From assembly GCA_021807125.1 (NCBI GenBank), contig JAKAPK010000001.1, positions 182,354 through 246,353 on the forward strand: a stretch of 64,000 nt of DNA. Reading direction: 5' to 3'. A program made the position numbers and the translations under genes. The number at the start of each line of letters is the position of its first letter. Position 1 is the stretch's first letter. The DNA is from Nanobdellota archaeon (GTDB taxonomy: Archaea; Nanobdellota; Nanobdellia; Parvarchaeales; Parvarchaeaceae). Shown piece after piece: positions 4,950 to 57,363 of the stretch. Below the pieces are notes generated by a model that was not told the origin of the DNA, ran no database searches, and saw nothing but the letters and a program-made list of their open reading frames with translations.

Positions 4950-4950
4950 C

Positions 4951-6235: not shown

Positions 6236-6263
6236 TAAACCTCAAAAGGATATTATTAAAATC

Positions 6264-6337
6264 GGGCTCGTAGCTCAACTCGGTAGAGCAGCTGGCTCTT
6301 AACCAGCTTGTTGCGGGTTCAAATCCCGTCGGGCCCA
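6264..6337 (+). tRNA. tRNA-Lys(CUU)
   Basis: Acceptor gggctcg/cgggccc plus a. Anticodon arm gctgg-ctCTTaa-ccagc. T arm gcggg-ttcaaat-cccgt. Confidence 0.9.
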
Positions 6338-6456
6338 TTTTTAGTTTTCGAAAATTTTTAAGGTTTAAAATGTTTAGTTAAAAACCTGTACTAATCTAGA
6401 GTTATTGCCGAACTAAAGGTTACACGTTTGCCTTATTCCTGCAAGAGTAACTGCCC

Positions 6457-6487
6457 ATACACTTTTCGGGACTTAGCATTATCCCCC
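6457..6487. repeat. casposon right-TIR-like motif, copy A
   Basis: 'atacacttttcgggacttagcattatccccc' aligns with copies at 7252, 32361, 50378 and 60841. The shared core is ACAyTTTycGG.A..TA.cAyTATCCC. Confidence 0.6.
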
Positions 6488-6556
6488 AAGTGAAGTAATC
6501 AGCATATAGCACGCTGACCTCCTTAATTTCACTAATGAAGGCGCAGTAGAGAAAAT

Positions 6557-7090
6557 TTATAATAAACTTTCTAAAATACTTCTAGACTTTAAAAAATCAG
6601 CCAGGGCGTTAATCTCTTCCTGTAACTCTGTTAAAGAAATATCTGAACGGCAATCTCTTAATAATTCTTCCGGTGCGACATCCAAAGGAGAATAAGATAT
6701 ATGGTGTTTCTTGCAGTACTCTGAGCTCTCATTCCATTTCGTATAGTTCTTAAATTTTAATAGATATTTCTCGCTAAGAGCCGGCTTAAGTTCTTTTTGG
6801 ATATGCCCATAAAGTCCGGCGCCGATACTGACTAAATGCCATTTAACTTCTCTACCGGCATTCCATTCTTTTAATCTTTCTATAATTTCTGAAAAATCCC
6901 CTTTTTCATCGCGGAGCTCGACCCATGGAAATGGGTTGGCACGATCGTCGTGTCCTTCGCATGAGGCAGTAGTTGAGTTATACAGATTTACAGCAGCAAC
7001 TAGAGGTCTTATCTTAATATCTAAGTGAAGCCCGTTTCTGTCTACGATTTTATCAAGGTCATCATCTGTTAATATTTTGCAGTTGCTCAT
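6557..7090 (-). CDS. hypothetical protein
   Basis: 177-aa ORF lying between TIR-like copies A and B; no recognisable motif. Confidence 0.45.
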   Translation of the reverse strand: MSNCKILTDDDLDKIVDRNGLHLDIKIRPLVAAVNLYNSTTASCEGHDDRANPFPWVELRDEKGDFSEIIERLKEWNAGREVKWHLVSIGAGLYGHIQKELKPALSEKYLLKFKNYTKWNESSEYCKKHHISYSPLDVAPEELLRDCRSDISLTELQEEINALADFLKSRSILESLL

Positions 7091-7251
7091 ATTTGTTATT
7101 ACAACATAGACGTATTTAAGTATTATACAGTTATTTCGTGGCTTTATAGACGTTAGCGTCAGTATCCTTAACAGTTTGCTATATCTAGATAATACTTGTA
7201 GATATAAGTAAATAGCTTTTGGATCAAATTAGTTTTAACTACAAAGTGAGC

Positions 7252-7283
7252 GTACACTTTTCGGTACTTAATACTATCCTCCC
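7252..7283. repeat. casposon right-TIR-like motif, copy B
   Basis: 'gtacacttttcggtacttaatactatcctccc'. The first 15 nt are identical to the copy at 32363-32377. Confidence 0.6.
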
Positions 7284-7480
7284 TTTTCAGTTTAGGATAA
7301 TCCAAGCCATATAAACTGCACGCATAACGATATGTGCACGCGTATATATCGAACTAGCTATAATCCGTACATTCTTACGTATTTACGAAGTTAGGAAACA
7401 CGAAAAAAGCGGGTATTACTTTTCGACCCGTATTCATAATTAAACCTTTTATACGAGTCTTTTTCTAAGTCTATTTATCA

Positions 7481-7485
7481 GGAGG
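7481..7485 (+). promoter_or_regulatory. Shine-Dalgarno-like GGAGG upstream of gap
   Basis: ggagg lies 6 nt upstream of the ATG at 7492. Confidence 0.35.
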
Positions 7486-7491
7486 GGCGCT

Positions 7492-8508
7492 ATGAATCAG
7501 ACAAGGGTAGGAGTAGTTGGCTATGGTACCATAGGAAAACGTGTAGTTGACGCCATACGTCTTCAACCGGATTTAAAACTTACAGGAGTTTCAAAAGTAC
7601 GCGCGGATTTCGAATCATCATTTATAACTGAACATGGCATACGTCTGTATGCTGTGACGCAGGAAGCAGATGCAGCAATGAAATCCAGCGGGATAAGTAC
7701 ATCTGGATTATTGAAGGACATGCTCGCCGAATCAGATGTCATTATAGACTGCACTCCGGAAGGCACTGGTGCAAAGAACAAGCAGCTTTATCAGAAAGTA
7801 GGCATAAAAGCCGTGTTCCAGGGCGGTGAAAAACCTGATATAGCGCAAACGTCATTTGTCTCAGAAGTAAACTACGCCGACTCATTAGGCAAGGATTTTG
7901 TGCGCGTCGTATCCTGTAATACGACCGGACTTTGCAGGACGCTAAGCAGAATAAACGAAGAAGTTGGACTAAAAAAAGTAAATGCAGTGATAGTTAGGCG
8001 CGCAGCCGATCCAAACGAAATAAAAAAAGGACCAATAAATTCGCTTGTCCCTAATCCTGCTAAGCTCCCCTCACATCATGCGGAAGACGTACGCACTATA
8101 CTAAAAGGCCTGGATATATTTACTTCTGCAGTCATAGCACCAACTACGCTTATGCACGTGCATGTAGTAAGCGCACAGCTTGAACGTGCTTCAACAAAGG
8201 ATAATATATTGAGCGCACTCAGTAAATCAAGGCGCATAAGACTGGTGGATTCTAGCATGGGAATAGACTCTACAGCATCAATACTAGAATTTGCCAAAGA
8301 TCTTAAAAGACCAAGAAACGACATGCCGGAAGTGGTAGTGTGGTCAGATTCCGTATATGTTAAAGACAATGAGGTACATTATATGCAGGCAGTGCATCAG
8401 GAATCTATAGTAGTACCTGAAAACATAGATGCAGTAAGGGCGATGTTGAAGCTGGAAACAGACCCGCAAAAATCGATAGATATTACTAATCAGAGCCTTT
8501 TGGGTTAA
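7492..8508 (+). CDS. gap: glyceraldehyde-3-phosphate dehydrogenase, archaeal type II
   Basis: 'RVGVVGYGTIGKRV' Rossmann N-terminus and the 'VVSCNTTGL' active-site Cys motif. ~338 aa is the typical length for archaeal GAPDH. Confidence 0.9.
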   Translation: MNQTRVGVVGYGTIGKRVVDAIRLQPDLKLTGVSKVRADFESSFITEHGIRLYAVTQEADAAMKSSGISTSGLLKDMLAESDVIIDCTPEGTGAKNKQLYQKVGIKAVFQGGEKPDIAQTSFVSEVNYADSLGKDFVRVVSCNTTGLCRTLSRINEEVGLKKVNAVIVRRAADPNEIKKGPINSLVPNPAKLPSHHAEDVRTILKGLDIFTSAVIAPTTLMHVHVVSAQLERASTKDNILSALSKSRRIRLVDSSMGIDSTASILEFAKDLKRPRNDMPEVVVWSDSVYVKDNEVHYMQAVHQESIVVPENIDAVRAMLKLETDPQKSIDITNQSLLG

Positions 8509-25268: not shown

Positions 25269-27668
25269 TTATCTTTTGAACTCCGAGAATTTCTTAAATA
25301 AAATCACTTTTATTTCATCTATCGCTAATAGCGATAAAATCGACACCGCGAATACGCTGGCTATCTCACTAATAGATATCGACTGCATAAGTATCCCGAA
25401 ATAAGCCATTACTGCTCCGAGAGCCATCCCGAGAATCGTCGCAAGTAAGAGCGCATTACTGGGCCTAGAATGCCAAAAATGTCCTCTCTCTCTTATACTG
25501 AAAATTGTCAATTCTATACTTACATCGAATACTAAGAAGAGAAACGTCTGAAAAGCAGGAATTCCCATATTAAATATATACAAACCTAAAATCGAGAAGA
25601 TTATCGTTTCTATAAGTAGGAGTCCGCCCATTATGGACGATGCATACACTATCGCATTCACATCCCACGCATCCGGCTTATTTGAATACTGTTCGTTATC
25701 AGTTGCCAACGTTATGCTTGAAACGTCGTTCAAGAACACCAAAGCCACTAATTGCAACGGGAGTATGGGCAAAAACCCGAGTGCTATAAATGCTATACTA
25801 AGAAAAAACACTATTTGTACTATCTTTACAATTTTCATCACTGTATATGTTATCATCCTCTCGAAAATCTTCCTGCTTTCCTTTATAGTGTCTATTATGA
25901 CTCCGAGACCCGGAAGTGTTAACACTACGTTGGCAGATGCTCTTGCTATATCGGTGGCGTTTGACACCGCAATGCCCACCTGTGCCTTTTCAAGAGCAGG
26001 TGCATCATTTATGCCGTCGCCAGTCATTCCGACTGAGAATCCCCCGTTTTGTATGGCATTTACTATTGAGTACTTGTTTTCTGGCAGAACATCCGCAAAT
26101 CCAGCGGCTCTGTTGACGATTGCAGATAGGACTTTGTCTGTCTTGTTCTTTATGCTGTCTATTTCTACTATTTCACCACCCATTCCTATTTCTTTTGCTA
26201 TGTGCCTTGCTATGTAAACGTTATCTCCTGTAAGCATTTTTATAGACAGACCTAATCCGTTCAGTTCCTTTATCAATTGTCCAATGTTTGCTCTTGGTTT
26301 ATCATATAGAGTAAGCAGGCCAGCAAGACGTTTTACAGAACCCTCTTTAATCGAAACGGCAATGGTCCGCAGTCCCCCTTTGGATAGGTTATCTGCTTCC
26401 GCATCCATCTTTTGTTTGACATCTTTGTTCAATCCTTTATTAAGATATGTTACAGATCCCTTTGATATAGTCATTTTTTTGCCCTTGTAGATGACAATCG
26501 CACTAGAACTCTTCGTATCGACGTCAAATGGGATTACCTTTTCTACCTTGTATTTCGTCGTTTTTATCCTGTGAGCTTTTGCATATTCAAGTATGGCATT
26601 GTCTATAGGATCCTGGTCTTCCTTGCGCACCGTAAGGAGTGCTAACGCAACTACATCTTCAGCCGAAAAACCGTTGTTTGGTACTGGCTCACCCAGTACA
26701 AGACGATTTTCGGTTATAGTGCCGGTCTTATCCAAGCATAGTACATTTATGGTAGAAGCCTCTTCTATTGCGGATAATTTCGTTAGAAGCACACCCTTGT
26801 CTAATAGTTTCCTTGTGCCTAATGCCATAGCTACTGTAAATGCCACCGGCAGCGCTACCGGTACAGAGCCTATCATAAGTACGAGTATGAATGGCACTAC
26901 AGAAGAAAGAGGTTCTGCTATAACAAGTGCATAAATCGCAACTATAACTATAAGGAACGCATTTATGGCCATTATACGTTTTACGATTCCCATTACCGCA
27001 CCCTCTATGCGAGTCTTTGTTTTCGTGTCCTTCACAAGTTCCACTATTTTACCGAAATAAGTATTCTTTCCGGTTGAAAGAACCAATGCGGTGGCTTCAC
27101 CCCTTTTTATAAGCGAACCGGAAAAACAAAGTTTTCCAGTGGTCTTCGTAGAAGGCAGCGATTCACCCGTAAGTACGGATTCGTCCACCATTATTGCTTC
27201 ATTATCTATTATTCTGCAGTCCGCTGGTACTATGTCGCCCGCTTTTAATCGTATTACGTCGCCTGGCACGAGATAAGTTGCCGCCGCATGTATCCACTCG
27301 CCATTTCGCAAAACTATGCTCCTTAGCGTTAGCCTCGCCTTTAATAGCTCTATAGCGCTGGTGGCATGATGTTCTTCGATAAAACCTATTATAGCGTTGA
27401 ATATGAGCATTGCCAGTATTATATAAGTTATCGCATAATCTTCCAGAACATACGAAGCCACCAACGTGAATTCTAACATTACCGGTATTGGTCCGAGGAA
27501 TTTTGAAAGAAACGTGATCAGCGAGCTTTTTTTCTTAGCTTTTATCTCGTTGTAACCGTATGAATCTAGCCTTACTTTTGCTTCCTTCTCGGAGAGGCCA
27601 TTACGGGATGAATCGACAAGCTTGAAAGAATCTTCCAGAGGACTTTTTTCTGTTTTTTCAGTATCCAT
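25269..27668 (-). CDS. P-type ATPase, plasma-membrane H+-ATPase-like (type III)
   Basis: 'TGES', 'CLDKTGTITEN', 'KMLTGDN' and 'MTGDGINDAPALEKAQVGIA'. 799 aa. Confidence 0.88.
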   Translation of the reverse strand: MDTEKTEKSPLEDSFKLVDSSRNGLSEKEAKVRLDSYGYNEIKAKKKSSLITFLSKFLGPIPVMLEFTLVASYVLEDYAITYIILAMLIFNAIIGFIEEHHATSAIELLKARLTLRSIVLRNGEWIHAAATYLVPGDVIRLKAGDIVPADCRIIDNEAIMVDESVLTGESLPSTKTTGKLCFSGSLIKRGEATALVLSTGKNTYFGKIVELVKDTKTKTRIEGAVMGIVKRIMAINAFLIVIVAIYALVIAEPLSSVVPFILVLMIGSVPVALPVAFTVAMALGTRKLLDKGVLLTKLSAIEEASTINVLCLDKTGTITENRLVLGEPVPNNGFSAEDVVALALLTVRKEDQDPIDNAILEYAKAHRIKTTKYKVEKVIPFDVDTKSSSAIVIYKGKKMTISKGSVTYLNKGLNKDVKQKMDAEADNLSKGGLRTIAVSIKEGSVKRLAGLLTLYDKPRANIGQLIKELNGLGLSIKMLTGDNVYIARHIAKEIGMGGEIVEIDSIKNKTDKVLSAIVNRAAGFADVLPENKYSIVNAIQNGGFSVGMTGDGINDAPALEKAQVGIAVSNATDIARASANVVLTLPGLGVIIDTIKESRKIFERMITYTVMKIVKIVQIVFFLSIAFIALGFLPILPLQLVALVFLNDVSSITLATDNEQYSNKPDAWDVNAIVYASSIMGGLLLIETIIFSILGLYIFNMGIPAFQTFLFLVFDVSIELTIFSIRERGHFWHSRPSNALLLATILGMALGAVMAYFGILMQSISISEIASVFAVSILSLLAIDEIKVILFKKFSEFKR

Positions 27669-27943
27669 GTATAAGGAAGCGATGGCTTTCTAGAGATATA
27701 AGTATACCAGCTCAAAGTCAAAAGCACAGGGAGCAGCAAATCAAACCCAGAACATCCACTCTTTTTCACTGATTTTCCTACTTATATGCTAACTGCTAAT
27801 CTGTTGTTTCTCATGACGAGAGCCAACAATATCAGCATATACAGGAAAATCATTCCCAAAATTATTATGCTGTCCATAATCTTTTCCCCACATTCTATAA
27901 TATGAAAGGTCCTAGAATATAAATTTTTCTGCTTTTTATAGCC

Positions 27944-28438
27944 TCATTTCCTGTGGAAAAGACGGATCAATCTTTCGTATACTGCTTCGGGCACGTATTT
28001 TTTTACTGCTTCTTCCCAGCCTTTCGGACCGATAAGTCCTTTAACCACGCTGGAACTGACTTCCGAAAGTTCTTCCGGCGGTATTAGAAAAACAGTATAT
28101 ACTTCCGAATTAAGTGCATAGTTTATCCTGTGCATTCCTTTTTCATATTCATAGTCCTTAGAATTTCTGATTCCTCTAAGGACATAGCTCGCGCCTATGG
28201 ATTTTGCATAATTTACCAGGAACTGCTTTTCAAAGGAATCTACCGTAACATTTTTATTCGTTTTAACAGCTTCTTTCAGCATTTCAAGCCTATCTCCTAA
28301 GGAGAACATTGGTTTTTTTTCGGGGTTCACGCCTACGGCCACAACTAATTCATCGAATAGTTTTGCCCCTTGGGATATCATCCAGACATGCCCGTTTGTA
28401 AGAGGATCGAAACTTCCCGCATACACGCATTTCGTCAT
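27944..28438 (-). CDS. coaD: phosphopantetheine adenylyltransferase, bacterial CoaD type
   Basis: 'VYAGSFDPLTNGHVWMI', 'LRGIRNSKDYEYE' and 'SSSVVKGL' are colinear with the bacterial CoaD motifs (GSFDP.T.GH, RG.R...D.E.E, ISS...). Confidence 0.85.
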   Translation of the reverse strand: MTKCVYAGSFDPLTNGHVWMISQGAKLFDELVVAVGVNPEKKPMFSLGDRLEMLKEAVKTNKNVTVDSFEKQFLVNYAKSIGASYVLRGIRNSKDYEYEKGMHRINYALNSEVYTVFLIPPEELSEVSSSVVKGLIGPKGWEEAVKKYVPEAVYERLIRLFHRK

Positions 28439-28511
28439 AACAATTGTATACTGCGGTTTTAAATATAAATGTCGATTTGGAGTGGTTTCGCACGTATCTA
28501 CTTTCCAGCCA

Positions 28512-29162
28512 TCATTTCCTTAAACTTCTCCAAAGATATATCGCCGCTATTGTACGATAAGGCGCCCAGTCTCCCGATATTTTTTCTATACTTTTTCTTT
28601 CAGGCAAATTTCTAAGTCCGTAAGCTTTTTTTATGGCTTTTCTTATCCCAAGATCATCAGCTGGCAATACGTCCAACCTGCCAAGGTTTGATATAAGGAA
28701 CATTTCGGCAGTCCATCTCCCTATTCCCTTTACAGCATCCAATTCGCCTATTATATCCTCGTTTTCAAGTTTGTTCATTTTTTTTAGTTCCAGAGACCCG
28801 TTCTTAATTCGTTTACAGAGATCCCTAAGGTACAATAGTTTCTGTGGAGATATTCCGGCGGATCTTAATCTTTTTCCGTTGGTTTTTAGTAGTCTTCCCG
28901 GCGATGGGAGTCTACCATCGAATAAGGATTTTAACCGTCTTATTATAGAATCTGCGGCTGAATCCGATATCTGTTGTGATATTATTGCAATAACAAGGGA
29001 TTCATAAGGGTTTCCCCTATGGTAATTTTCCGACAATTTGAAAAGTTCATGGTAATCGATCCCTTTTATCAATTTTTGCATTGTTTTATCGACTTTGCAC
29101 AGGTGCGAAGTTCCCATACTCCATTCTTTTATGTCGGATAAAAGCCGTTTTAAGTGTGCCAT
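28512..29162 (-). CDS. HhH-GPD DNA glycosylase (AlkA / 3-methyladenine glycosylase II-like)
   Basis: 'LDAVKGIGRWTAEMFLI...LPADDLGIRKA' gives the HhH motif, Gly/Pro loop and catalytic Asp. Confidence 0.8.
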   Translation of the reverse strand: MAHLKRLLSDIKEWSMGTSHLCKVDKTMQKLIKGIDYHELFKLSENYHRGNPYESLVIAIISQQISDSAADSIIRRLKSLFDGRLPSPGRLLKTNGKRLRSAGISPQKLLYLRDLCKRIKNGSLELKKMNKLENEDIIGELDAVKGIGRWTAEMFLISNLGRLDVLPADDLGIRKAIKKAYGLRNLPERKSIEKISGDWAPYRTIAAIYLWRSLRK

Positions 29163-29215
29163 AAAAATATGAATTTTATTTAAATAATGACTTTATTAAT
29201 TAAATAGTTCATGAT

Positions 29216-29719
29216 ATGCCGACAAAACGAATGATCATAATGGGGGAAACGCACGGATTTCTTGAGGACAAGCTTAATCAGGCGCGTATAATACGCAGAA
29301 TAAAACCGGGATACGTACTGATGGAACAAGAGTCTTCAGATTCTGATCCAGATGAGACATACGATGCACAAAAAAGAGGCAATCAAGAGCTTCTCTTAGC
29401 GATAAAGGAAACCGGAACCGAGATCATAAGATGCGACGCACAGCTTAATAACGCGCCAGAAAATCGCTTAGCCGCAATGTTATACGTCCTTTTTAACAAT
29501 GGCACGAGGGAAAAGGAGATGGGCTATATAGCTGTCAGCTACTATCAAAAGACCGACTCAAGTATCGTAGTGATAGTGGGAGAAGGCCATGCCAGACAAA
29601 AATCAAAGATATACAAGGTTTTAAGATCTGAAGGAGTCCCTTACGAAGTAGTAAGATCGATTTACAAACCCCAGAACGGCCTAGAAGAAATACTAAAAGG
29701 GTTTATTGACTCAGTTTAA
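29216..29719 (+). CDS. hypothetical protein, possibly ChaN/TIKI-like
   Basis: 'MGETHG' and 'VGEGHAR' pair is reminiscent of the GxxH motifs of the ChaN/erythromycin-esterase/TIKI superfamily. Weak. Confidence 0.35.
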   Translation: MPTKRMIIMGETHGFLEDKLNQARIIRRIKPGYVLMEQESSDSDPDETYDAQKRGNQELLLAIKETGTEIIRCDAQLNNAPENRLAAMLYVLFNNGTREKEMGYIAVSYYQKTDSSIVVIVGEGHARQKSKIYKVLRSEGVPYEVVRSIYKPQNGLEEILKGFIDSV

Positions 29720-29768
29720 CGCTTTATACCCAGCATGTTAATATTATTGATATACGAGGAGTAAGTTG

Positions 29769-30332
29769 ATGAAGCACGATATATCAGGCCGACACACACG
29801 TGAGTTTTCGCATAGGGATTACAAGACATTAAAGCACGAGCTAAACAGGAGAAACGTGCTGATACCGATATTTTTAAGCTCTGTTGCGCTCGTAGCGATA
29901 GTGTTCATTTTACAGGAATTGAACCTTTACATAACCAAAATAAGCGGTTCTTCGGCCCTGATATTTGCATCCTTTGCGAGCAGTGCTTTCACACTCCTTT
30001 TGATGCCTTATTCAAAGGCCGCAAAAAGAAAAAGATTTGTAAAGAGTTATATCATAGCGGCAGTTTTCGGTTATCTTGGTTTCCAGCTTTCAACTTACAT
30101 AAATTTTTATTTTTCGTTCAGCATAGTTTTTTTCGTAGTCTCTCTTTTGTTGTTTGAGACGGACAGTGAACACCCGCCCGCATTAGGGATAGCCGCGGCG
30201 TTCCTATTGTTTGGCGTACCTGCCGAAGGGATAATAACCATAGCGCTTGGCGTAGCATTACTAGTGTTGCTTAAAACCCTTTTCCAGAGACTAGGAGTCC
30301 TTAGTAAGTCAAGCGCATTTAGAGTCAGATAA
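29769..30332 (+). CDS. HPP-family membrane protein
   Basis: Four TM segments and a 'DSEHPPALG' HPP motif. Confidence 0.55.
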   Translation: MKHDISGRHTREFSHRDYKTLKHELNRRNVLIPIFLSSVALVAIVFILQELNLYITKISGSSALIFASFASSAFTLLLMPYSKAAKRKRFVKSYIIAAVFGYLGFQLSTYINFYFSFSIVFFVVSLLLFETDSEHPPALGIAAAFLLFGVPAEGIITIALGVALLVLLKTLFQRLGVLSKSSAFRVR

Positions 30333-30340
30333 CCGGATGT

Positions 30341-30790
30341 CTATAGCTTACGGTAACCTAAGTCGCTCAGCGTATTGAACGGCACCATATCGACCTTTGA
30401 AAGTTTAAGCTCATCATTATATTTATCGTAGTCTCCAATGTAAGCTATGGCAGAGTGTCCCTCGCAGTTTGGAAGTTTTCCTGCGATTATAAATCCATAC
30501 AGTGAATAACAACTTTCGGCAAGAGAATCTCCACTTGGGTCAAAACCGCTCCTTATAACCCACGTAGACTTGTTGTGTTGCACGAAATAAATGGTGTAAG
30601 CGAGACGTGGATCATTTAGCTTTCGATCAGTAACAAACTTGCTCCTTCTTATCCTTGAATGATCTATTTCACCAATAACAGATTCCAACCTTCTCTTCCA
30701 CTCTTTCTTAACGGCAGCAGTTCTTTTCGTTTCAAGCCCTAGCTTCTCTTTTAGGCCGGCTATGAATGAGTTCTCTAATTGCATTGCCAT
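30341..30790 (-). CDS. hypothetical protein
   Basis: 149-aa ORF; no recognisable motif. Confidence 0.45.
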   Translation of the reverse strand: MAMQLENSFIAGLKEKLGLETKRTAAVKKEWKRRLESVIGEIDHSRIRRSKFVTDRKLNDPRLAYTIYFVQHNKSTWVIRSGFDPSGDSLAESCYSLYGFIIAGKLPNCEGHSAIAYIGDYDKYNDELKLSKVDMVPFNTLSDLGYRKL

Positions 30791-30991
30791 ACTAAGCTTA
30801 GCTGCTATTTAAATCTTAAACTAAATAAACTGCCGTGCAGTCTATAGTGAAAGATAAGCCTGCTGTAAAATGAAAAACCACTATAGTGCCTTTAAGTAAG
30901 ATTTATGTTGAAAGGATAGAAAAAACTATGATACGAGTTCGAGTATGCTGCAAAATAAACTTCTAATGTGATCCTTCATCATTTTTCTGTT

Positions 30992-31492
30992 TTAATAAAG
31001 AATATCCCACTCTCTATAAAGGTGAATAGCTATTATAGCATTCAAGCCGATGCTAAAAATCCCAATAAGCATAAGCGCAAGAGATAGTTCTGGAGGAGCA
31101 AGAGAAACAAAAGTAAAAGCAAGAATACCAAGGCCGAATATTATCAAGATAGCACTAAAAGGCACTGTTATGGTCAATAATCCTAATGTTAATATGCTGG
31201 AGATATCGTTTTTTTTCCACACTAAAATCGCGTCTAATATATAAAAACAGGCAACAACTATCGCCATATACGATAATGCCCTGCTAATAAGTAAGAACCC
31301 GATTTTTTGGAACAGGCTTCCCTGAAAAAGCAGCACGTCTAAAGCAAGGAAGACCCAAAATACACCCAAGAAAATCAAAGACGCTGAAAAGAGCAGGGAG
31401 CCTTTTCTTATAGTAGGTCTGTGTACTAACAGCTTAGCTTTGTTTTTTACAACAAGTGTTTTTTCTATAGTAATATAATGCGTATTGTTCAT
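30992..31492 (-). CDS. hypothetical membrane protein
   Basis: 166 aa with ~4 TM segments. Confidence 0.45.
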   Translation of the reverse strand: MNNTHYITIEKTLVVKNKAKLLVHRPTIRKGSLLFSASLIFLGVFWVFLALDVLLFQGSLFQKIGFLLISRALSYMAIVVACFYILDAILVWKKNDISSILTLGLLTITVPFSAILIIFGLGILAFTFVSLAPPELSLALMLIGIFSIGLNAIIAIHLYREWDILY

Positions 31493-31662
31493 AAAACAGT
31501 TTATTTTTAGGGAAGTCGCCTACAGAGAGATTATGCGACAGCACTCGAACCAGTTACAAGAGTAACTTACTGACGCTTTTTGGTAGATGCGACTAGTTGC
31601 TACTTTATTCAAGGATATGCTATACCACGGAATGACATAACTTGATACACTAAAATAGAAAG

Positions 31663-32304
31663 TCATCTTATCATGCTGTTTAGTTTTTTGTACAAAACAT
31701 CGTAGGTCTTTTTAGTCCTGTGTTTTCTATAGTTCTTGAGAAAGCCCATGATTGCTCGTATTCCTCTTTTCTTTATTAGAAGGCGTGTAGCTAAGTAGCT
31801 GTTTCTATAGAATTCCTTTGCATCTCCATCGCTTTCTTTTAAATCTTCTTTGGAAAAGGAGTATCTCAGATACGCGGCATTAATCTGTCCACTACATTTT
31901 TTATCTTCCAGTTCATCCATGTTCATGGCTAATCCCTCAAAAAGCCATATCGGTGTGCATGTACCCACAAAGTTCATGTAAAAGATATGATTCATCTCGT
32001 GAATCAATGTCTGTAGATAGCCAGATAGTTTGTGTGAAGTCAGTCGTTCGAATACCGAAGGTGCAAATATTACTATTATTTTTTGGTCGCTAGTGAACGC
32101 GCAATTCCATGTCTTTGTTTTATACCCTGCCTGTTTATCGAAGTCCGCACGTGAATAGACGGGCTTGATTTTAATTGCTACGTCAATCTTCCAGAATTTC
32201 TTATTTACGCCGTATGCTTTCTTGACGTACTTCTCAAATTTTTCTTTATCTCCAGCAGGAACATTCTTTGGGATATTTAGTTTGTCTTTATAACGCGTAA
32301 TCAT
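31663..32304 (-). CDS. hypothetical protein with HExxH zinc-metallopeptidase motif
   Basis: 'LIHEMNHIFY' followed by 'FEGLA' (possible third ligand Glu). It is the last gene before TIR-like copy C. Confidence 0.5.
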   Translation of the reverse strand: MITRYKDKLNIPKNVPAGDKEKFEKYVKKAYGVNKKFWKIDVAIKIKPVYSRADFDKQAGYKTKTWNCAFTSDQKIIVIFAPSVFERLTSHKLSGYLQTLIHEMNHIFYMNFVGTCTPIWLFEGLAMNMDELEDKKCSGQINAAYLRYSFSKEDLKESDGDAKEFYRNSYLATRLLIKKRGIRAIMGFLKNYRKHRTKKTYDVLYKKLNSMIR

Positions 32305-32360
32305 GTTTCGTATAGTAAATTTATAATTATATAATCTAAATTTTAGTTCTTAATCCTAAA

Positions 32361-32391
32361 GTGTACACTTTTCGGTAGATAGCACTATCCC
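32361..32391. repeat. casposon right-TIR-like motif, copy C (solo, adjacent to tRNA-Arg(UCU))
   Basis: 'gtgtacacttttcggtagatagcactatccc'. By hand alignment 21/30 identical to the intact right TIR at 60841-60870. Spacing to the tRNA is the same (10 nt). Confidence 0.7.
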
Positions 32392-32401
32392 AAAAGATTA
32401 C

Positions 32402-32476
32402 TGCCCTCGACAGGATTTGAACCTGTGACACGCAGATTAGAAGTCTGCCGTTCTGTCCAAGCTGAACTACGAGGGC
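32402..32476 (-). tRNA. tRNA-Arg(UCU)
   Basis: Reverse complement has acceptor gccctcg/cgagggc plus a, anticodon arm gcaga-ctTCTaa-tctgc, and T arm cacag-gttcaaatc-ctgtc region. Confidence 0.9.
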
Positions 32477-50377: not shown

Positions 50378-50407
50378 AGTGCCATTTCTTTGAGATAGCA
50401 TTATCCC
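50378..50407. repeat. solo copy of the casposon right TIR (remnant of an earlier insertion)
   Basis: 'agtgccatttctttgagatagcattatccc' is 25/30 identical to 60841-60870, with the terminal 17 nt identical. It is followed by the same 14-nt target copy. Confidence 0.75.
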
Positions 50408-50421
50408 CAGATAAAACTGCC
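50408..50421. repeat. target-site duplication, left copy (CAGATAAAACTGCC)
   Basis: Perfect 14-nt direct repeat of 60871-60884, immediately outside the left TIR. Confidence 0.85.
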
Positions 50422-50474
50422 GGGATAATGCTATCTCCTCAAAATGAGACTAAAAGTTGTAAAGATTACAAGCT
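50422..50474 (+). repeat. casposon left terminal inverted repeat
   Basis: 'gggataatgctatctcctcaaaatgagactaaaagttgtaaagattacaagct' against the reverse complement of 60818-60870. 27/30 terminal nt and 46/53 overall are identical (hand alignment). Confidence 0.85.
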
Positions 50475-50543
50475 AGGTTTTTTATTATTGTATTTTTGTT
50501 CAATTACGCTTAAAAACGAATAATAACATATTATAAAGTAAAT

Positions 50544-51110
50544 ATGGCAGAAAAGCAAGTTAAAAGAGTCTTAAATCGACGCGTAGACGATAGACACTTT
50601 AAAAATAATTCGTCCGGTAGTAAGAGTCGAGCTTCGCTCTTAAAGAAAGTAAATACTGGCGGGCAATTTCCGACAAAAACATCTGGCCAAGTAACAGAAT
50701 TCGAATTTTTAGCTGGGTTTTATATGCTAGCCCCTATTTTAGTGATATTACTAATTGCATTTACGCAGTTTATCGGGTTTGTAATTTTGATTATATGTTT
50801 TATCATCATCCTTATTGTTACAAAGAAAAAGTATTCCTTAATTGTATCGATTTCATTTATATTTTGCAGCGTTCTTCTTGGACTTGCTACATTGTATTCA
50901 GCGACAAATTCAAACAATTCAATTTATACAAATTTTACGATTCCACTTTACATTGCGCTTGGGGCTACATCTTTTGTCCTTTACATAGAATATGTCATAA
51001 AAGACTTGAACGAGTTTTATAAACTGAAAGGACCCATTGCAATCCTAAAATGGAACGAGTCTATCAAGGACTATTTATTTTCGAAATATTTCCGTAAAAA
51101 AGGTCGCTAG
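50544..51110 (+). CDS. casposon-borne membrane protein
   Basis: 188 aa with a basic N-terminus and 3-4 TM segments. Confidence 0.5.
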   Translation: MAEKQVKRVLNRRVDDRHFKNNSSGSKSRASLLKKVNTGGQFPTKTSGQVTEFEFLAGFYMLAPILVILLIAFTQFIGFVILIICFIIILIVTKKKYSLIVSISFIFCSVLLGLATLYSATNSNNSIYTNFTIPLYIALGATSFVLYIEYVIKDLNEFYKLKGPIAILKWNESIKDYLFSKYFRKKGR

Positions 51111-51149
51111 ATAATTAGACTACCAAAATTAACCAACGGTTTTAAGACT

Positions 51150-53747
51150 CTATTTTTTAAGTGTTTTCTTCCACCTATAAAACGTTGCTCTAGACACACC
51201 GTGCGCTATAGCCCAGTCCAACCCCTTCTCCACAACTTCCTTTTTAAGGACCTCTTTACTCCGATATGTGACTACGCTGATTGATTCAAGACCGCTCAAG
51301 TTATGTTCAATTTTGTTAGCCTCTTTTCCGATGTAGAGTATGTTATTTGCGAAGACATGCCGTCTGTCCAGTAAACCAATCTTGTCGGTATCATCGAACT
51401 TTGCCTCGGGATGTTTTATATAGTCTAAAAGCACTTCGCTTAACGGTAACCAGTATTCCGGACCGTTATAGATCTTTCCAGTCTTATAGTCTATGAAGTC
51501 TCCATAGACCGCGCTTTGCGTATCTTTCGAATACGGTGCTATCGGTTTAATGTTTTTATTGGTTCCAAAGCCTATCAGGAAGAAGTTAAACGGCTTTATT
51601 GTAGCTTCTGGATGCTTCTTGTTATACTTAGCGAACCTTTTGAGGAGACTCGGGCTAGAGACGATAAACTGGGAAACAGCGTAATAATCTTTGTACTCCT
51701 CTATAAAATTATCTAGAGTAATCTGACCATAATGAAGTTTAAGAATATCGAGCCATATCCTTTTCTGCCATTTGGTTTCCTTGTCTCCGAATGGATTCAT
51801 CAAATGGCCCAGACCGTGCAGAGAATAGTTCTCATCGTCCTCTGATTCGTCTATTACGAACTCTCCGTTCTCGATTCGATATAGAACGTATCTTTTGGCG
51901 CTTATACCGTAAAACCATACGTCGGTTTCCTCTTCTTTCAGTAGAGAGTCTACGTTAGAATACGGATTCAGAGGGTCAAAGAACGCCTTTATTTCTTTCG
52001 TATACCTCGGAGGTACGAACATGCTGTCCGTGTCGCAATAAACTATATTTTCTCCGTGCTTCTGGAGTATGCAATCTCCGATACCCAACAGTAGTTTGGA
52101 GCCGCCGGTTATCAGCGTTGCTATTATAGGGTCGAACGATTTTCCAGGCTTTTCGAATCGGTTCTTGTCGTCAAATACCTCGCTTCCGTATACCTCCAGT
52201 TCCTCGTCATAGTCTTCTGGATTCATCTCTATGAAAATCCCGTAGCTCGTGGCGTTTGCCAGAATCTTTATTGCACGTTGTACAGAATCCAGTCTTTCAT
52301 ATTCCATGCTGCCCTTTTTCTCCTTATCGCGCAATCGTTGTATTTCCTGTCGTTTCTCTATAAGCACTTTGAACAGGTTGTCTTTTGATGGGTCTATCGT
52401 AACTCCTAATACGTCCGTAGATTTCAGTGTCTTTTGCTTTCCTACTGCATCGAATCGGATGGCCTTTACGATTTTCGGTGTCTTTCCTGTGAGCAGTTTC
52501 GATAGCACTATCTCACCCAGCGTATAATATACTGGCCGTGTCGAAGTAAGGTAATTGAACCCTACTGTAAAGGTGTCTTTGTTATATCTGGCCCTTACTG
52601 ATAACAAATCGTCGTTAGGAATTATTTTCACGATTACGTTTAGCCGTTTCCACGTCTCTAGTTTCCTTAGGTCTTCGAGAGTCACGCTCTCTACAAAATG
52701 TATAATTGCGTCGGTATCTTCGCGGTATTCTATTCTTTCAGCCGTTACAAAGTCCCATAGGCCGAGTAGTATGAACATCGTCGGGTACATAGACTTGAAG
52801 TCCAATACCGACACCTTTACAGGCTCTTTCCTTACACGGCATTCGCATCGGCCGCCATAATAGGTCTGCATTACATATCCGAGTAATTCGGGAGGAAAAT
52901 TAGGATTCGTGGCGCCAAACGAGTTTATGCCTAACTTTTCGAGACAGAATTTTCCGATTGTCGCGGATGAGTAGATCTCGTTTAAAGGTATCGGCAAGGA
53001 GTACTTCTCGAACTCTTCCCTTAGCCGCGTAAATAGCTCGGCCGTAGCTAGAGTGTCGTTTATGTTGTATTCTATATATTTTCGATTGATTTTACCGTGT
53101 TCTTTGGTCTCAAGTTTATGATAAGCCTTATTGAACATCTCACACGCACGTTTTAGATTTAGGTGTTTCTTATCCGTCAAAGTAACACCTAAGGTCTTCA
53201 AATCCACAAAGAAGCCGGGCTTGTGTTCGTAGCTCGTAGACCTGAAGTTAATGAAAGCTTGACTGGAACTGTTGTGTTTTATGCGTATCGGTGGAAACTT
53301 TCGTTCATAGTGTAGCTTCAGAGCAAATCCTCCGCGCATGCCTCTCTTTGAAGGCACTGGGTTAAATGTCGAAAGCCTGGGTAAATCAAAGGGCAAATTA
53401 AACCCTATGCAAGGAATTTGTCTTTTGTATACGTAGGGATAGAATACGTCTTCTATAAACTCGTTTAAGGCGTATAGTTTGACTATGCCATTTTCTTTGC
53501 AGTAGGCCTTTAGCTCTTTAAGCTCCTTATCCGATACTTTTGTCGGATTATAGAATAACCCTATCAATTGTACAGAATTACCAGTTTGTATCACGAACGA
53601 ACCGAACTTAAGGTCTTGAGCTTGGTCTACGGTGGTTTCTGTGTCTAGGACCAGTATCGTGCTGAAGTCCGGGATAGCTGTTTTTCTTTCATAAGGCTTG
53701 CGCTTCCGTTTAGGTACCGTGTATGCTCTGACCGCGATGTCGGTCAT
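51150..53747 (-). CDS. polB: family-B DNA polymerase (protein-primed-type, casposon PolB)
   Basis: Exo I 'LVLDTETT', exo II-like 'YNINDTLAT', motif A 'VLDFKSMYPTMF', motif B 'KILANATSYGIF' and motif C 'VYCDTDSMFV'. 865 aa. Confidence 0.9.
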   Translation of the reverse strand: MTDIAVRAYTVPKRKRKPYERKTAIPDFSTILVLDTETTVDQAQDLKFGSFVIQTGNSVQLIGLFYNPTKVSDKELKELKAYCKENGIVKLYALNEFIEDVFYPYVYKRQIPCIGFNLPFDLPRLSTFNPVPSKRGMRGGFALKLHYERKFPPIRIKHNSSSQAFINFRSTSYEHKPGFFVDLKTLGVTLTDKKHLNLKRACEMFNKAYHKLETKEHGKINRKYIEYNINDTLATAELFTRLREEFEKYSLPIPLNEIYSSATIGKFCLEKLGINSFGATNPNFPPELLGYVMQTYYGGRCECRVRKEPVKVSVLDFKSMYPTMFILLGLWDFVTAERIEYREDTDAIIHFVESVTLEDLRKLETWKRLNVIVKIIPNDDLLSVRARYNKDTFTVGFNYLTSTRPVYYTLGEIVLSKLLTGKTPKIVKAIRFDAVGKQKTLKSTDVLGVTIDPSKDNLFKVLIEKRQEIQRLRDKEKKGSMEYERLDSVQRAIKILANATSYGIFIEMNPEDYDEELEVYGSEVFDDKNRFEKPGKSFDPIIATLITGGSKLLLGIGDCILQKHGENIVYCDTDSMFVPPRYTKEIKAFFDPLNPYSNVDSLLKEEETDVWFYGISAKRYVLYRIENGEFVIDESEDDENYSLHGLGHLMNPFGDKETKWQKRIWLDILKLHYGQITLDNFIEEYKDYYAVSQFIVSSPSLLKRFAKYNKKHPEATIKPFNFFLIGFGTNKNIKPIAPYSKDTQSAVYGDFIDYKTGKIYNGPEYWLPLSEVLLDYIKHPEAKFDDTDKIGLLDRRHVFANNILYIGKEANKIEHNLSGLESISVVTYRSKEVLKKEVVEKGLDWAIAHGVSRATFYRWKKTLKK

Positions 53748-54040
53748 ATTGTCTTCTTCAACTTTTCAAGCGCTCTTCGTTTTATTCTTGTCCCTACAGT
53801 ATCGAGCAATCCAGCTATTGAGATTTCTTCATAAGCGTCTTTTTCAATCTGACTTGCATTCTTACTTCTGGCTTTAGGAGAGATGCCATTCTGCTCTGTA
53901 GTTATCTTATCATGGCAGTTGTGGCAGAGCCAAACGGTTTCCGGGCTATTGTTTCTCCCGAACACGTGATGCTCTTCCTTGATAACTCTCGGGTCGTCTT
54001 CACCACAGATAGCGCAGGGCGGCTTAGTCGTATATCTCTC
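53744..54040 (-). CDS. HNH endonuclease (open frame lacks an in-frame start for its N-terminal half)
   Basis: The frame reads '...KPPCAICGEDDPRVIKEEHHVFGRNNSPETVWLCHNCHDKIT'. This gives CxxC...HH...N...CxxC-H, i.e. HNH. The first start codon (GTG at 53965) lies after the CxxC and HH. 4-nt overlap with the polB start. Confidence 0.6.
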   Translation of the reverse strand, partial: ERYTTKPPCAICGEDDPRVIKEEHHVFGRNNSPETVWLCHNCHDKITTEQNGISPKARSKNASQIEKDAYEEISIAGLLDTVGTRIKRRALEKLKKTI

Positions 54041-54518
54041 CTAACTCGTGCTCTTCACGTCGTAGTTCTATCTCCTGTATTTTGGTAGGGTCCGTTTCAA
54101 GATGATGGGTTTTGCCGTAAATATTCTTGATTCTGGTCCGTTTGTATTTTTTCAGTGCACGCCAATCACCAGAGTACAGGCCCTTCTTCACATCATTATA
54201 GTACCGGCCTATTATCGCAGCCTGCTTAGAGCCTTTAACGATTACCGTTCGTCTCCGACCGTTTTCGTATATTATCAGTTCTCTCTCCAAGGTATCGGAC
54301 TTTTTCGCACGCCACTTACGCTTGCATTTGTATAAGACGGACCCCAAATTATGTCTAACGGTGTCCGGCTTTAGACCCAACTCTCCGGATGCTCTTGTAA
54401 GCGACTTGCCCTCGCGGATTAACCTTAGCACATCGAGCGATTTTACTCTCAAAGCTCTCTCTTCTTTCGATAGCTTAAGCCAGCGTTTGATATGCCGATG
54501 TTTCCGTCGTTTCACCAT
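54024..54518 (-). CDS. casposon HTH DNA-binding protein
   Basis: Basic N-terminus, then 'GKSLTRASGELGLKPDTVRHNL', a resolvase/terminase-type HTH. 164 aa. Confidence 0.6.
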   Translation of the reverse strand: MVKRRKHRHIKRWLKLSKEERALRVKSLDVLRLIREGKSLTRASGELGLKPDTVRHNLGSVLYKCKRKWRAKKSDTLERELIIYENGRRRTVIVKGSKQAAIIGRYYNDVKKGLYSGDWRALKKYKRTRIKNIYGKTHHLETDPTKIQEIELRREEHELGEIYD

Positions 54519-54833
54519 TTACTGTTGGCCACCCCCACGTCGTCTAAAAAGGACCACCAGTATAATGGCCAGCACGGCACCACCTAATCCCAGCCAACCC
54601 CAACTAGAAGATGAATGGCGTTCGGCGATTTCTCTACTACCATCAGAGGGTCGATCCTCTGCTGGTAGCGATTCAACCACTGGTGCGGCATCGCTTACAG
54701 TAGCTGCTTGTTCTACCGGTTCGCTTTCTGGTTCCGGCAGCGCTTGGCCGCGATGAAACCTGCTTTTGTGCACGCGATAGCTTGCACCACTCTTAAACTC
54801 CTTCCCGTCAAACGGGCATATTCTTATGGACAT
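54519..54833 (-). CDS. C2H2 zinc-finger protein with C-terminal TM anchor
   Basis: 'CPFDGKEFKSGASYRVHKSRFH' (C-x2-?..H-x5-H type) and C-terminal 'WGWLGLGGAVLAIILVVLF'. The ATG at 54833 is preceded by GAGGTGA; the track ORF extends to 54902. Confidence 0.55.
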   Translation of the reverse strand: MSIRICPFDGKEFKSGASYRVHKSRFHRGQALPEPESEPVEQAATVSDAAPVVESLPAEDRPSDGSREIAERHSSSSWGWLGLGGAVLAIILVVLFRRRGGGQQ

Positions 54834-54879
54834 ATATTTCACCTCAAAAGTAAATCTACGTTTGTCAGATAATGTTATC

Positions 54880-54931
54880 GTATTACCTCCAAGAAAAATC
54901 AAGATATTTATTAGGGGTAATGTATTACCTC
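54880..54931. promoter_or_regulatory. divergent-promoter region with direct repeat GTATTACCTC x2
   Basis: gtattacctc occurs at 54880-54889 and 54922-54931, each preceded by (t)aatgt. It lies between the divergent starts at 54833 (-) and 54935 (+). A TATA-like 'gatatttatta' sits at ~54902. Confidence 0.35.
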
Positions 54932-54934
54932 TTT

Positions 54935-55942
54935 ATGACATTGACGAGAGAAGAAAAGAAAATCGTGGCATTTTTAGAAGCCAGTAAAGATGCTGGTAGG
55001 TCTTCTGAAGAAATCGCAGCGCGATTGGATTTAGCCAAGAAAAACATTCTAAAGAAAGTCAATAGATTGAAGGCCTTAAACATAGTGTCAAAATTCGGTA
55101 CTACTAGAGTAGTTCGTTATCGTCTAAGTAAGTATGACCCGGAGGAGGTTCAGAAAACAAAGATGTACCGACTTATTAAAAGTACCGAAACGCGCAGAAA
55201 GCAGGAAGACAAAAAACGGTATAAAGATAATGCAGAATTTCGTTCATATCTACTAAGCAGTCTAGATTCGTTTCTGATACAGATTTCGCACGTTTTAGAT
55301 TGTGATTTAAAGACGTTAGAAGTGACTATAGACGATGAAGAAACTTTCAAAAAACTGGTGCTGCATGCTAAGATGCGATCACTGTCAAAAAATATCTTAT
55401 TCGCGATAAATGATTATTTAAAAGAGGGGCTTAAAGAGGCGTTAACACGACCACATGCCCAGATAGAGGTATACGAACAGAAGATGATTAAAAACATCTT
55501 AGATGAAATAGATTATTGCGCGCCAAATCTAAATCATAAAGCTTGTTATGATGCAATTGAAATACATATAGATCCAAGGTATGAAGACCTTTCATTTTCA
55601 GAGGAGCTTAAAAACTTTGTGAATGGCGATGACCGAAACAGTTTATGGGATAAAGAAATAAGAGATGCGCTTAATAGCTATGGTGTTATTCTAAGCGAGT
55701 TTATCAAATATTTAGACGGTATAAAGATTGCACATAAGATAAGCAGCTCTGGCCTCGAAATACTTTTCGATGCAGATGATCTGGAACATTGGATACGAAA
55801 CTTAAGGGAGACTCTCAGTCATATTATTAAAATGGCTCTTGAGCTCAAGTATTTTTTAGACAAAATGCAAAAGGAGCAGGGACAATTCAGAAAGCGTGGA
55901 AAAGTCTTGAAATATAAAGTAGAGACGCTTACTTCTCTTTAG
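54935..55942 (+). CDS. winged-helix (MarR/ArsR-like) DNA-binding protein with long C-terminal domain
   Basis: 'LTREEKKIVAFLEASKDAGRSSEEIAARLDLAKKNILKKVNRLKALNIVSKFGTTRVVRYRL' is a wHTH. The start is taken at the internal ATG; the track ORF begins at 54872. Confidence 0.6.
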   Translation: MTLTREEKKIVAFLEASKDAGRSSEEIAARLDLAKKNILKKVNRLKALNIVSKFGTTRVVRYRLSKYDPEEVQKTKMYRLIKSTETRRKQEDKKRYKDNAEFRSYLLSSLDSFLIQISHVLDCDLKTLEVTIDDEETFKKLVLHAKMRSLSKNILFAINDYLKEGLKEALTRPHAQIEVYEQKMIKNILDEIDYCAPNLNHKACYDAIEIHIDPRYEDLSFSEELKNFVNGDDRNSLWDKEIRDALNSYGVILSEFIKYLDGIKIAHKISSSGLEILFDADDLEHWIRNLRETLSHIIKMALELKYFLDKMQKEQGQFRKRGKVLKYKVETLTSL

Positions 55943-56066
55943 GTCGGTCCCAATATGGACTATGGCATTTTGGGCAAAGTGGTGGCTTAACCCTTTTTCT
56001 AGGCGTCCACTTATGACCGCACCTATTGCATAGATACCCCTTTACTTGAATAGTTGTCTCCGGCAT
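55929..56066 (-). CDS. small zinc-ribbon protein (45 aa)
   Basis: Not in the track: MPETTIQVKGYLCNRCGHKWTPRKRVKPPLCPKCHSPYWDRPKEK, with two CxxC pairs. Convergent 14-nt overlap with the preceding gene. Confidence 0.5.
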   Translation of the reverse strand: MPETTIQVKGYLCNRCGHKWTPRKRVKPPLCPKCHSPYWDRPKEK

Positions 56067-56091
56067 GCAAACTTATTTCATTTTTAATATT

Positions 56092-56106
56092 AAAAGTTTA
56101 TATATT
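56092..56106 (+). promoter_or_regulatory. TATA-like box upstream of cas1
   Basis: 'aaaagtttatatatt' lies ~26-40 nt upstream of the ATG at 56132. Confidence 0.35.
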
Positions 56107-56131
56107 ATCTAATACTTATTAGTTAATACGT

Positions 56132-57361: not shown

Positions 57362-57363
57362 CT

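Follow-up and report, generated by a model that had tools for sequence, protein, structure and literature searches.

The tRNA-Arg(UCU) gene of a Nanobdellota archaeon lies on the minus strand of a 64,000-nucleotide stretch of contig JAKAPK010000001.1 (assembly GCA_021807125.1), which we refer to as the window (positions 182354-246353 of contig C7 of genome G000, G000:C7 in our numbering). Directly past the 3' end of this tRNA gene is a single right-hand terminal inverted repeat (TIR) of casposon type. Behind it, moving away from the tRNA, are the gene of a 213-aa HExxH protein, a second and more decayed TIR, and genes for a 166-aa membrane protein and a 149-aa product, up to a conserved TM_HPP gene (Table 1). 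The genome is a metagenome-assembled genome (MAG) of 653 kb in 7 contigs with 40% GC. In a scan of public genomes with the pattern of this TIR type (type B, described below), the host genus grouped with Candidatus Parvarchaeum ARMAN-4, ARMAN-5 and MAGs labelled 'Nanoarchaeota', which makes the host a DPANN archaeon. The data throughout are MAG assemblies, and casposase function is deduced from sequence geometry together with published biochemistry.

The repeat beside tRNA-Arg(UCU) was located as a 31-mer where the initial annotation had placed it, and it is the top match in the whole genome (32353-32391, E 6.7e-10) to an nhmmer profile built only from the copies in relatives. By hand count from the alignment, it shares 21 of 31 positions with the intact right TIR of a casposon resident in the same window, so that the similarity reported earlier stands with its 21/30 corrected, and its terminal 12 nt are common to the TIR of that element. 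The resident element (50422-60870) is a true casposon: it encodes Cas1 (the casposase, window 56132-57361; Pfam, 6e-52) and the family-B polymerase PolB, its 53-nt TIRs are 87% complementary, its target-site duplication (TSD) is 14 nt long (CAGATAAAACTGCC), and its right tip lies 10 nt from the 3' end of tRNA-Arg(GCG). The distance from tip to tRNA at the tRNA-Arg(UCU) site is likewise exactly 10 nt, as had been claimed, matching the geometry at 60870/60881, and of the 14 nt beyond the tip the outermost 4 belong to the tRNA end, in the same register as CAGATAAAACTGCC at 60871-60884. Profile match, spacing and exact core motif thus bear out a casposon-type right TIR in standard geometry. No similarity to Cas1 or PolB was found in 28500-32391 by tblastx, blastp or Pfam searches of the open reading frames (ORFs). 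The accessory DNA behind the TIR was checked for presence and absence: contigs found from four other samples all carry it with flanking proteins identical to those of the window, the three contigs that were aligned have the same arrangement at 99.8-100% DNA identity, and it appears to be fixed in the sampled population. With homology to the TIRs of elements encoding a Cas1 casposase and PolB, a position at the casposase target (14-bp target, 4-nt tRNA overlap, TCAAATC 8 bp upstream) and no full-length element or casposase gene attached, 32361-32391 is a casposon TIR remnant at a standard tRNA target. The inner end of the copy contains a 14-nt palindrome (AAAGTGTACACTTT), which is not conserved in other TIR copies and was dropped as a candidate feature.

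Table 1. Features at the tRNA-Arg(UCU) locus, listed from the tRNA leftwards (window coordinates).
Feature	Position	Strand	Remarks
tRNA-Arg(UCU)	32402..32476	-	ARAGORN; Rfam RF00005, 68.1 bits; T-loop TCAAATC plus 8 bp would form the casposase target 'leader'
14-nt target copy AAAAGATTACTGCC	32392..32405	.	10-nt trailer plus last 4 nt of tRNA; tRNA-side copy of the expected TSD
Solo right TIR, type B (GTGTACACTTTTCGGTAGATAGCACTATCCC)	32361..32391	+	adjoins tRNA; nhmmer; exact core motif
Upstream (likely promoter) region of HExxH gene	32305..32360	-	directly against TIR
213-aa HExxH...E protein	31663..32304	-	putative MA-clan zincin-like metallopeptidase; accessory cargo
Candidate decayed left-type TIR tip (GGATATGCTATACCACGGAA)	31613..31633	+	inverted relative to 32361-32391; ~13-14 nt after decayed right-type TIR
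14-nt spacer GCTACTTTATTCAA	31599..31612	.	resembles target of a plus-strand tRNA ending GCTA (tRNA-Gln type)
Decayed second type-B (B1) TIR	31555..31599	+	same orientation as 32361-32391, 792 nt upstream; probable end of older stacked element
166-aa multi-pass membrane protein	30992..31492	-	accessory, 4/32 genus genomes; no Pfam family above cut-off
Hairpin and T-rich tail with ACTGCC	30825..30845	-	terminator-like in scan; left-end scores at chance
149-aa ORF	30341..30790	-	accessory, 3/32 genus genomes; no Pfam match; left of proposed 30821 boundary
TM_HPP gene	29766..30332	+	conserved (Pfam TM_HPP); left limit of accessory block

The 12-nt core TAGCAYTATCCC occurs six times in the window at no more than one mismatch, against 0.5 expected, and seven exact copies are found genome-wide. 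Three exact copies end 10 nt from a tRNA 3' end, at tRNA-Arg(UCU), tRNA-Arg(GCG) and tRNA-Gln(UUG) (C7:48486), while further ones belong to the left TIR of the resident casposon (50422) and to a solo TIR stacked on it (50396). Another exact copy, at window 6474, lies near tRNA-Lys in a geometry that is not standard, with a more degenerate copy beside it at ~7252-7281. A one-mismatch copy at C3:146975 ends 10 nt from tRNA-Arg(CCU), giving four tRNA-adjacent sites in identical register. Because the copies exceed expectation and cluster at tRNA ends and element ends, the generic genomic repeat that had been named as an alternative is not borne out. Aligned in register, as had been proposed, the copies fall into two types. 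Type A (...GAGATAGCATTATCCC) is represented by the TIRs of the intact element, by the solo copy stacked at 50407 and by the tRNA-Gln copy. Type B (...CGTACACTTTTyGGnAGATAGCAyTATCCC) comprises the tRNA-Arg(UCU) and tRNA-Arg(CCU) copies and those at window 6485 and 7279. The tRNA-Arg(UCU) TIR is thus not a copy of the resident casposon's TIR, and belongs to a second lineage without an autonomous copy in the assembly.

Several of these sites have features of their own. Outside the window, the type-A solo TIR at C7:48471-48486 has its tip 10 nt from tRNA-Gln(UUG), and ~3.9 kb inside it (~C7:44435-44587) is a Cas1 C-terminal fragment whose amino acid sequence is 74% identical to that of the resident Cas1 over 51 aa; this locus is another decayed casposon. 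In tblastx and blastp comparisons of the cargo inside the different TIRs, that fragment was the only match. The type-B TIR at C3:146946-146975, also outside the window, has its tip 10 nt from tRNA-Arg(CCU) and is accompanied ~450 nt further in by a second decayed copy of subfamily B1 in the same orientation (C3:146489-146526, nhmmer E 4.4e-7), a double-copy layout like that at tRNA-Arg(UCU). Two same-orientation type-B copies, 794 nt apart, also stand at window 6429-6485 and 7227-7279 around a 177-aa ORF (6557-7090, minus strand). Both copies are downstream of tRNA-Lys(CUU), from which they point away; since the homologous TIR in the relative G016 adjoins tRNA-Lys in standard geometry, local rearrangement is likely here.

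Relatives provide the context that type B lacks in this genome. The type-B pattern is present in 14 of 33 genus genomes, whereas a reversed control pattern gave no matches, and conservation among the copies extends over ~33 nt, or ~55 nt within subfamily B1. At one locus, L126 (JAJYYF010000001.1, 131-7104), type-B TIRs bound a 6.97-kb element on either side, and its 14-bp TSD (CCCATTTTGAATAA) at tRNA-Pro(UGG) is perfect. The element is stacked on an older type-A left tip. Its Cas1 fragments are 65-75% identical to the resident Cas1, and its PolB fragments show 43-50% identity; both genes are missing their 5' parts, apparently through one internal deletion. Because L126 pairs type-B TIRs with a perfect TSD and Cas1/PolB fragments, type B is a real casposon end. 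The idea that type-B TIRs survive only next to tRNAs was considered and rejected, since L126 has both ends and the pattern is partly an effect of assembly: 7 of 14 element-side stretches reached a contig end less than ~8 kb from the TIR, and another four loci lay too near such an end to yield a stretch.

The full elements in the relatives G011 and G016 have TIRs of a third type, C (GGGGTATAGKATATCTC). The one in G016 (L075, G016:C8, 1560-15095) is a full casposon of ~13.5 kb at tRNA-Ser(CGA), and its perfect 60-nt TIRs suggest a very recent insertion. At the other extreme, L043 (G045:C23, 4141-6424) is an element of 2.3 kb that lies at a tRNA, stacked on a type-B solo TIR; each of its ends is a type-A TIR, and its 14-nt TSD (AATAATAGGATGGG) is perfect. 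It has no similarity to Cas1 or PolB and, judged by its ends and TSD, is a clear natural non-autonomous casposon derivative. Together with L126, it shows that relatives supply such derivatives; a literature search found no paper on casposons in Parvarchaeum or on natural non-autonomous casposons, which is not proof of absence. In addition, a 1.79-kb segment of 97.8% identity is shared between L032 (G013:C9, an ARMAN-4 scaffold, 5803-7594) and L042 (G045:C28, 818-2608). It begins inside a polB 3' fragment, and its other end is in both cases the same type-B TIR, set beside different tRNAs (Gln and Lys), reflecting either recent inter-species movement or a binning artefact.

The initial annotation had suggested that the casposase recognizes tRNA-Arg-like 3' ends at more than one locus. 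Multiple loci are indeed used, yet the restriction to Arg is lost once the genus is considered, as the tRNAs used are Arg(UCU, CCU, GCG), Gln(UUG, CUG), Lys(CUU), Val(CAC), Pro(UGG) and Ser(CGA). What these sites have in common is the word GATTTGA (TCAAATC on the other strand), which starts exactly 22 nt from the tip at 24 tRNA-adjacent tips, four in this genome and 20 in genus relatives, across TIR types A, B and C. Two other rows are L029, an internal stack junction without a tRNA, and the tRNA-adjacent L126, which reads 23 from a one-base coordinate offset. This spacing places TCAAATC 8 bp upstream of the 14-bp target, while the first two TSD bases vary between GG (Arg), GC (Gln) and CC (Lys, Val, Pro). 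Because the word stands at a fixed distance across many tRNA species, a 'tRNA-Arg-like' reading is too narrow, and the determinant of targeting is probably a T-loop word common to about half of the tRNAs. In this genome, TCAAATC is found in 16 of 29 tRNAs, and a TIR adjoins 4 of the 16 with the word and none of the 13 without it. Within this one genome the association is only suggestive (Fisher one-sided p ~0.08 by hand calculation for 29 tRNAs; 0.039 computed for 25 ARAGORN tRNAs). The two totals come from Rfam (29) and ARAGORN (25); an intron-containing tRNA at window 4124-4250 (plus strand, Rfam 46.9 bits), for example, was missed by ARAGORN.

The same spacing is known from experiment. The casposon AciBoo-C1 of Aciduliprofundum boonei likewise sits at a tRNA 3' end with TCAAATC 8 bp upstream of a 14-15-bp TSD (Beguin et al. 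2016 and 2019; PMC5137440, PMC6614799). Mutagenesis established this motif and its spacing for the A. boonei casposase (PMC6614799), whereas the sequence of the distal TSD half does not matter (PMC5137440, PMC6614799). The sites described here thus equal the in vitro rule in spacing and give it natural multi-site support. They differ from it in that CC at +1/+2 is required in A. boonei, whereas GG, GC or CC occurs here, and in that many tRNA species are used here, known from sequence alone, rather than one tRNA-Pro. If the T-loop word is what is recognized, about half of the tRNAs would be potential targets, and four of them are scarred in a genome of 0.65 Mb. Across the genus, at least three casposon TIR lineages share the tRNA 3' ends of Parvarchaeum (ARMAN-type DPANN) as landing sites.

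The tRNA-Arg(UCU) gene itself stands beside SRP54 across the genus, so that the same site can be compared between species. G011 has a full-length Cas1 and PolB casposon of ~15.5 kb there, with type-C TIRs (L070, G011:C9, 912-16382). Intact type-B TIRs are present in G014 and G018, with an older right TIR and a Cas1 C-terminal fragment 2.6 kb further in for G014, while G004 and G020 carry decayed TIRs in the same register, and G019, G042, G012 and G016 have no TIR at this tRNA. In G016, tRNA-Arg(UCU)(-) faces tRNA-Arg(GCG)(+) at a distance of 2.9 kb (L071, G016:C4, 6167-9186), and between them are a decayed type-B tip, an ORF resembling methyltransferases, an HExxH homolog of 38% identity, a TIR-like word and a 3' fragment that resembles a tRNA.

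This comparison bears on whether the ~30-nt motif could be a host signal downstream of tRNAs, for termination or processing, that casposons have copied. Type-B copies do directly adjoin a tRNA in 17 of 19 cases among relatives (the other two being the L029 stack junction and a G004 copy that was not resolved) and in 2 of 4 in this genome, and the motif is better conserved than the adjacent 10-nt trailers. On the other hand, its presence at a given tRNA is patchy among species, the same sequence forms both inverted ends of TSD-flanked Cas1/PolB elements, internal TIR/TSD/TIR junctions lie far from any tRNA, and none of the 13 of 29 tRNAs with a different T-loop word carries it. Given the patchy occupancy, which fits repeated insertion and decay, we find the host-signal explanation hardly credible.

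The left side of the locus is a different matter. The initial annotation had drawn a bounded, non-autonomous element of ~1.55 kb (30835-32391) that enclosed both the 166-aa and the 213-aa genes, with a decayed left TIR and TSD at 30821-30860. That end is intergenic and contains ACTGCC (30829-30834), the last 6 nt of the Arg target, and a stacked composite that moved as a whole would predict an Arg-target-flanked outer left end to the left of the 166-aa gene. However, the TSD and TIR together score 20/45, below the mean best of 23 in shuffles of the 6.4-kb region, and both ungapped and gapped scans were at chance. Profile searches around 30821-30860, local nhmmer included, gave no match, and the ACTGCC word is one arm of a local 9-bp hairpin (30825-30845). 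Accessory DNA also extends beyond this end to 30333. Because the 149-aa ORF is as sporadic in the genus as the 166-aa and 213-aa ORFs, and TM_HPP is the first conserved gene, we delimit an accessory block of ~2.06 kb (30333-32391), whose left border is a break in gene order. TM_HPP is present in 7 of 8 fetched loci of relatives, followed in 6 of the 7 by tRNA-Ser(GGA), 12 nt to ~2.8 kb away, and not by this block. Inside the proposed bounds, moreover, a TIR/spacer/TIR junction (31555-31633) splits the two ORFs, and it is the only internal boundary with statistical support. The bounded element is accordingly very unlikely; the right-hand half of the original observation is solid and the left end is not real. 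The gene order said to be shared with a remnant left of the intact casposon did not hold up either, as the 213-aa HExxH ORF and the 259-aa one beside the other solo TIR are non-homologous (blastp; hhalign probability 1.2%) and the other ORF pairs between the compared flanks had no blastp match at E<=1.

The junction begins with a second type-B TIR (ACAAGAGTAACT...CTTTTTGGTAGAT). With a B1 profile built from relatives, nhmmer places 31555-31588 seventh genome-wide (E 0.02), after six recognized TIR copies, and an independent repeat search recovers a direct repeat of 78% identity between 31573-31595 and 32365-32387. The 14-nt spacer that follows matches the reverse complement of the tRNA-Gln TSD of G018 at 12 of 14 positions (P ~4-7e-4 per register, ~7 registers tried). 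The inverted tip at 31613 is the best gapped left-TIR match of the 6.4-kb scan (local P = 0.006), a weak match that we give weight because its position coincides, 14 nt after the second TIR. Read towards the tRNA, the order is right tip, 14 nt, left tip, HExxH gene, right tip, 14 nt, tRNA, which is the layout of a stack and is also seen beside the resident casposon (window 50378-50437), in L043 and in L126. Double same-orientation copies occur at C3:146489/146975 and window 6485/7279 as well. The 213-aa HExxH gene may therefore sit in a TIR-bounded unit of ~0.78 kb stacked on an older end, and the idea of a non-autonomous derivative, untenable for a 1.55-kb element, would survive in this changed form with the HExxH gene only.

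It is also conceivable that the block was not built in place, such that pre-stacked tRNA-Gln units moved together to tRNA-Arg(UCU), or that a plus-strand tRNA-Gln array and a minus-strand tRNA-Arg array were fused by deletion or rearrangement. The spacer resembles a tRNA-Gln target in plus-strand orientation, and gene order breaks off at the block's left border. In G041 (L033) two convergent tRNA-Gln-type ends carry inward TIRs, and G016:C4 shows the order tRNA-Arg(GCG)(+), TIR, HExxH homolog, TIR-like word, tRNA-like fragment. The 1.79-kb segment at different tRNAs in G013 and G045 would, if not a binning artefact, mean that such DNA has moved recently. Yet all tRNA trailers are T-rich, so the 12/14 match is partly compositional, no tRNA-Gln or tRNA fragment lies left of 31555, casposons are not known to transpose as composites, and MAG misassemblies are possible. 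We consider an origin elsewhere possible, though on the unlikely side.

The explanation we favour, and consider probable, is that a casposon inserted at tRNA-Arg(UCU), in the standard position for a casposase, and was later reduced to a fixed, immobile remnant. By the published biochemistry and the geometry seen here, the casposase would read the T-loop word TCAAATC and join the 3' ends of the element at two staggered positions 14 bp apart, the first of them 8 bp past the word, that is, 4 nt inside the tRNA 3' end. The tRNA would be left intact, with the TIR ending 10 nt beyond it. The remnant would then comprise the ~0.78-kb HExxH unit between the intact TIR and the weak 31613 tip, the decayed older type-B end at 31555-31599, arranged as a stack from repeated insertion at one target, and two further accessory ORFs, without a recognizable outer left end. 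Precise excision of casposons in Methanosarcina leaves no TIR (PMC10359463), and the scar is therefore better read as decay than as an excision footprint.

Several observations weigh against this explanation. Neither a second copy of AAAAGATTACTGCC nor a significant left TIR was found in 26000-32360, so that a single complete insertion, with two inverted TIRs and a direct 14-15-bp TSD, is not demonstrable. The contigs from the four other samples include no strain-level empty site, and the insertion event is thus not directly witnessed in the species; at the genus level none was obtainable, as leftward gene order is rearranged among relatives, and there is accordingly neither a presence/absence polymorphism nor a precise empty site. 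The spacer at 31599-31612 matches AAAAGATTACTGCC at only 5 of 14 positions, and a stack formed in situ would need heavy decay or a more complicated course of events. The match at the inverted 31613 tip is weak, and nhmmer missed it. Finally, the block holds no Cas1 or PolB fragment; what speaks for its origin from a casposon is the TIRs, where they lie, and how patchily the genes are distributed.

As for the cargo, the 213-aa gene was found in 2 of 24 genus genomes sampled and its family forms 8 clusters, most of which lie on short contigs. Ten homologs share an invariant HEMNH and, further downstream, invariant WLxEG residues, Peptidase_MA_2 matches fall below the cut-off in 6 of 10 family members (best E 1.9e-5), and an AlphaFold2 model has a predicted local distance difference test score of 81. 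Foldseek gave no match to this model at E<=0.001, several of the weak top matches being zincin peptidases, and we assign the protein to the MA-clan metallopeptidases putatively and with low confidence. The 5' end of the gene and its upstream region (window 32213-32354) are 86% identical to a fragment of G016:C3, where a decayed type-B (B1) TIR follows too. Since core DNA between genus members (SRP54) is only ~68% identical, gene and TIR have moved jointly on at least one occasion. In metagenomes, close homologs of the HExxH gene (60-74% identity) lie among toxin-antitoxin, HEPN/MNT and Cdc6 genes, and no TIR was found beside them.

One could go further and suppose that short single-gene, TIR-bounded cassettes, such as the ~0.78-kb HExxH unit, were moved in trans by whichever casposase is resident and piled up head-to-tail at tRNA 3' ends. 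We regard this as improbable. If true, it would amount to a natural array of same-orientation TIRs, each followed by a 14-bp target copy, beside a tRNA 'leader', an intermediate such as has been proposed to link casposons with CRISPR arrays, as well as an integron-like gene-capture site in reduced DPANN genomes.

Solo-TIRs, stacking and target geometry have already been published for Methanosarcina and A. boonei. In Methanosarcina, solo-TIRs are interpreted as degraded casposons, with tandem insertion into one target and several target loci per species (PMC4779613). The solo-TIRs of M. mazei (Krupovic et al. 2016, PMC4779613), like the remnant described here, are single TIRs at a conserved target without a casposase, read as degraded elements, and they outnumber intact copies. 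There they lie mainly at one intergenic site, whereas here they are at tRNA 3' ends (four tRNAs in a 653-kb genome) in a DPANN host (Parvarchaeum), with a TIR variant that has no autonomous copy in the assembly and with ~2 kb of cargo and a second, older TIR kept. The M. mazei tRNA-Leu casposons and Methanosarcina arrays share the geometry, with a 14-bp TSD over the last 4 bp of the tRNA (PMC6977970, PMC4779613). The arrays also share the repeated use of one target by adjacent elements with a TSD copy between them. Unlike them, the sites here lack the conserved CGCA at the TSD start, and the stacked units are very short (0.4-2.3 kb) and mostly without cas1 and polB. By analogy (PMC4779613, PMC4046053), Tn7 islands at attTn7 also arise by site-specific insertion past a conserved gene that stays undisrupted, with dead elements accumulating. 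There, however, the transposase is unrelated (TnsABCD versus the Cas1 casposase) and the target is a single gene rather than a word found in about half of the tRNAs.

The outcome for the locus itself is modest, a real but dead scar of a kind already described as the casposon solo-TIR, and its interest lies mainly in the genus-wide picture of T-loop-word targeting of many tRNAs, three TIR lineages, stacks and mini-casposons. Accessory genes are found at the scarred tRNA sites, and at this locus gene order is broken too; casposons may thus be a notable cause of plasticity in very small archaeal genomes. Casposon-laden tRNA sites may also be rearrangement hot spots. When window 4865-6337 and 27944-30332 are compared with the relatives' loci L080-L086, the breaks in gene order relative to the genus fall at tRNA genes, and the usual neighbour of TM_HPP, tRNA-Ser(GGA), is now ~25 kb away beside tRNA-Val and tRNA-Lys.

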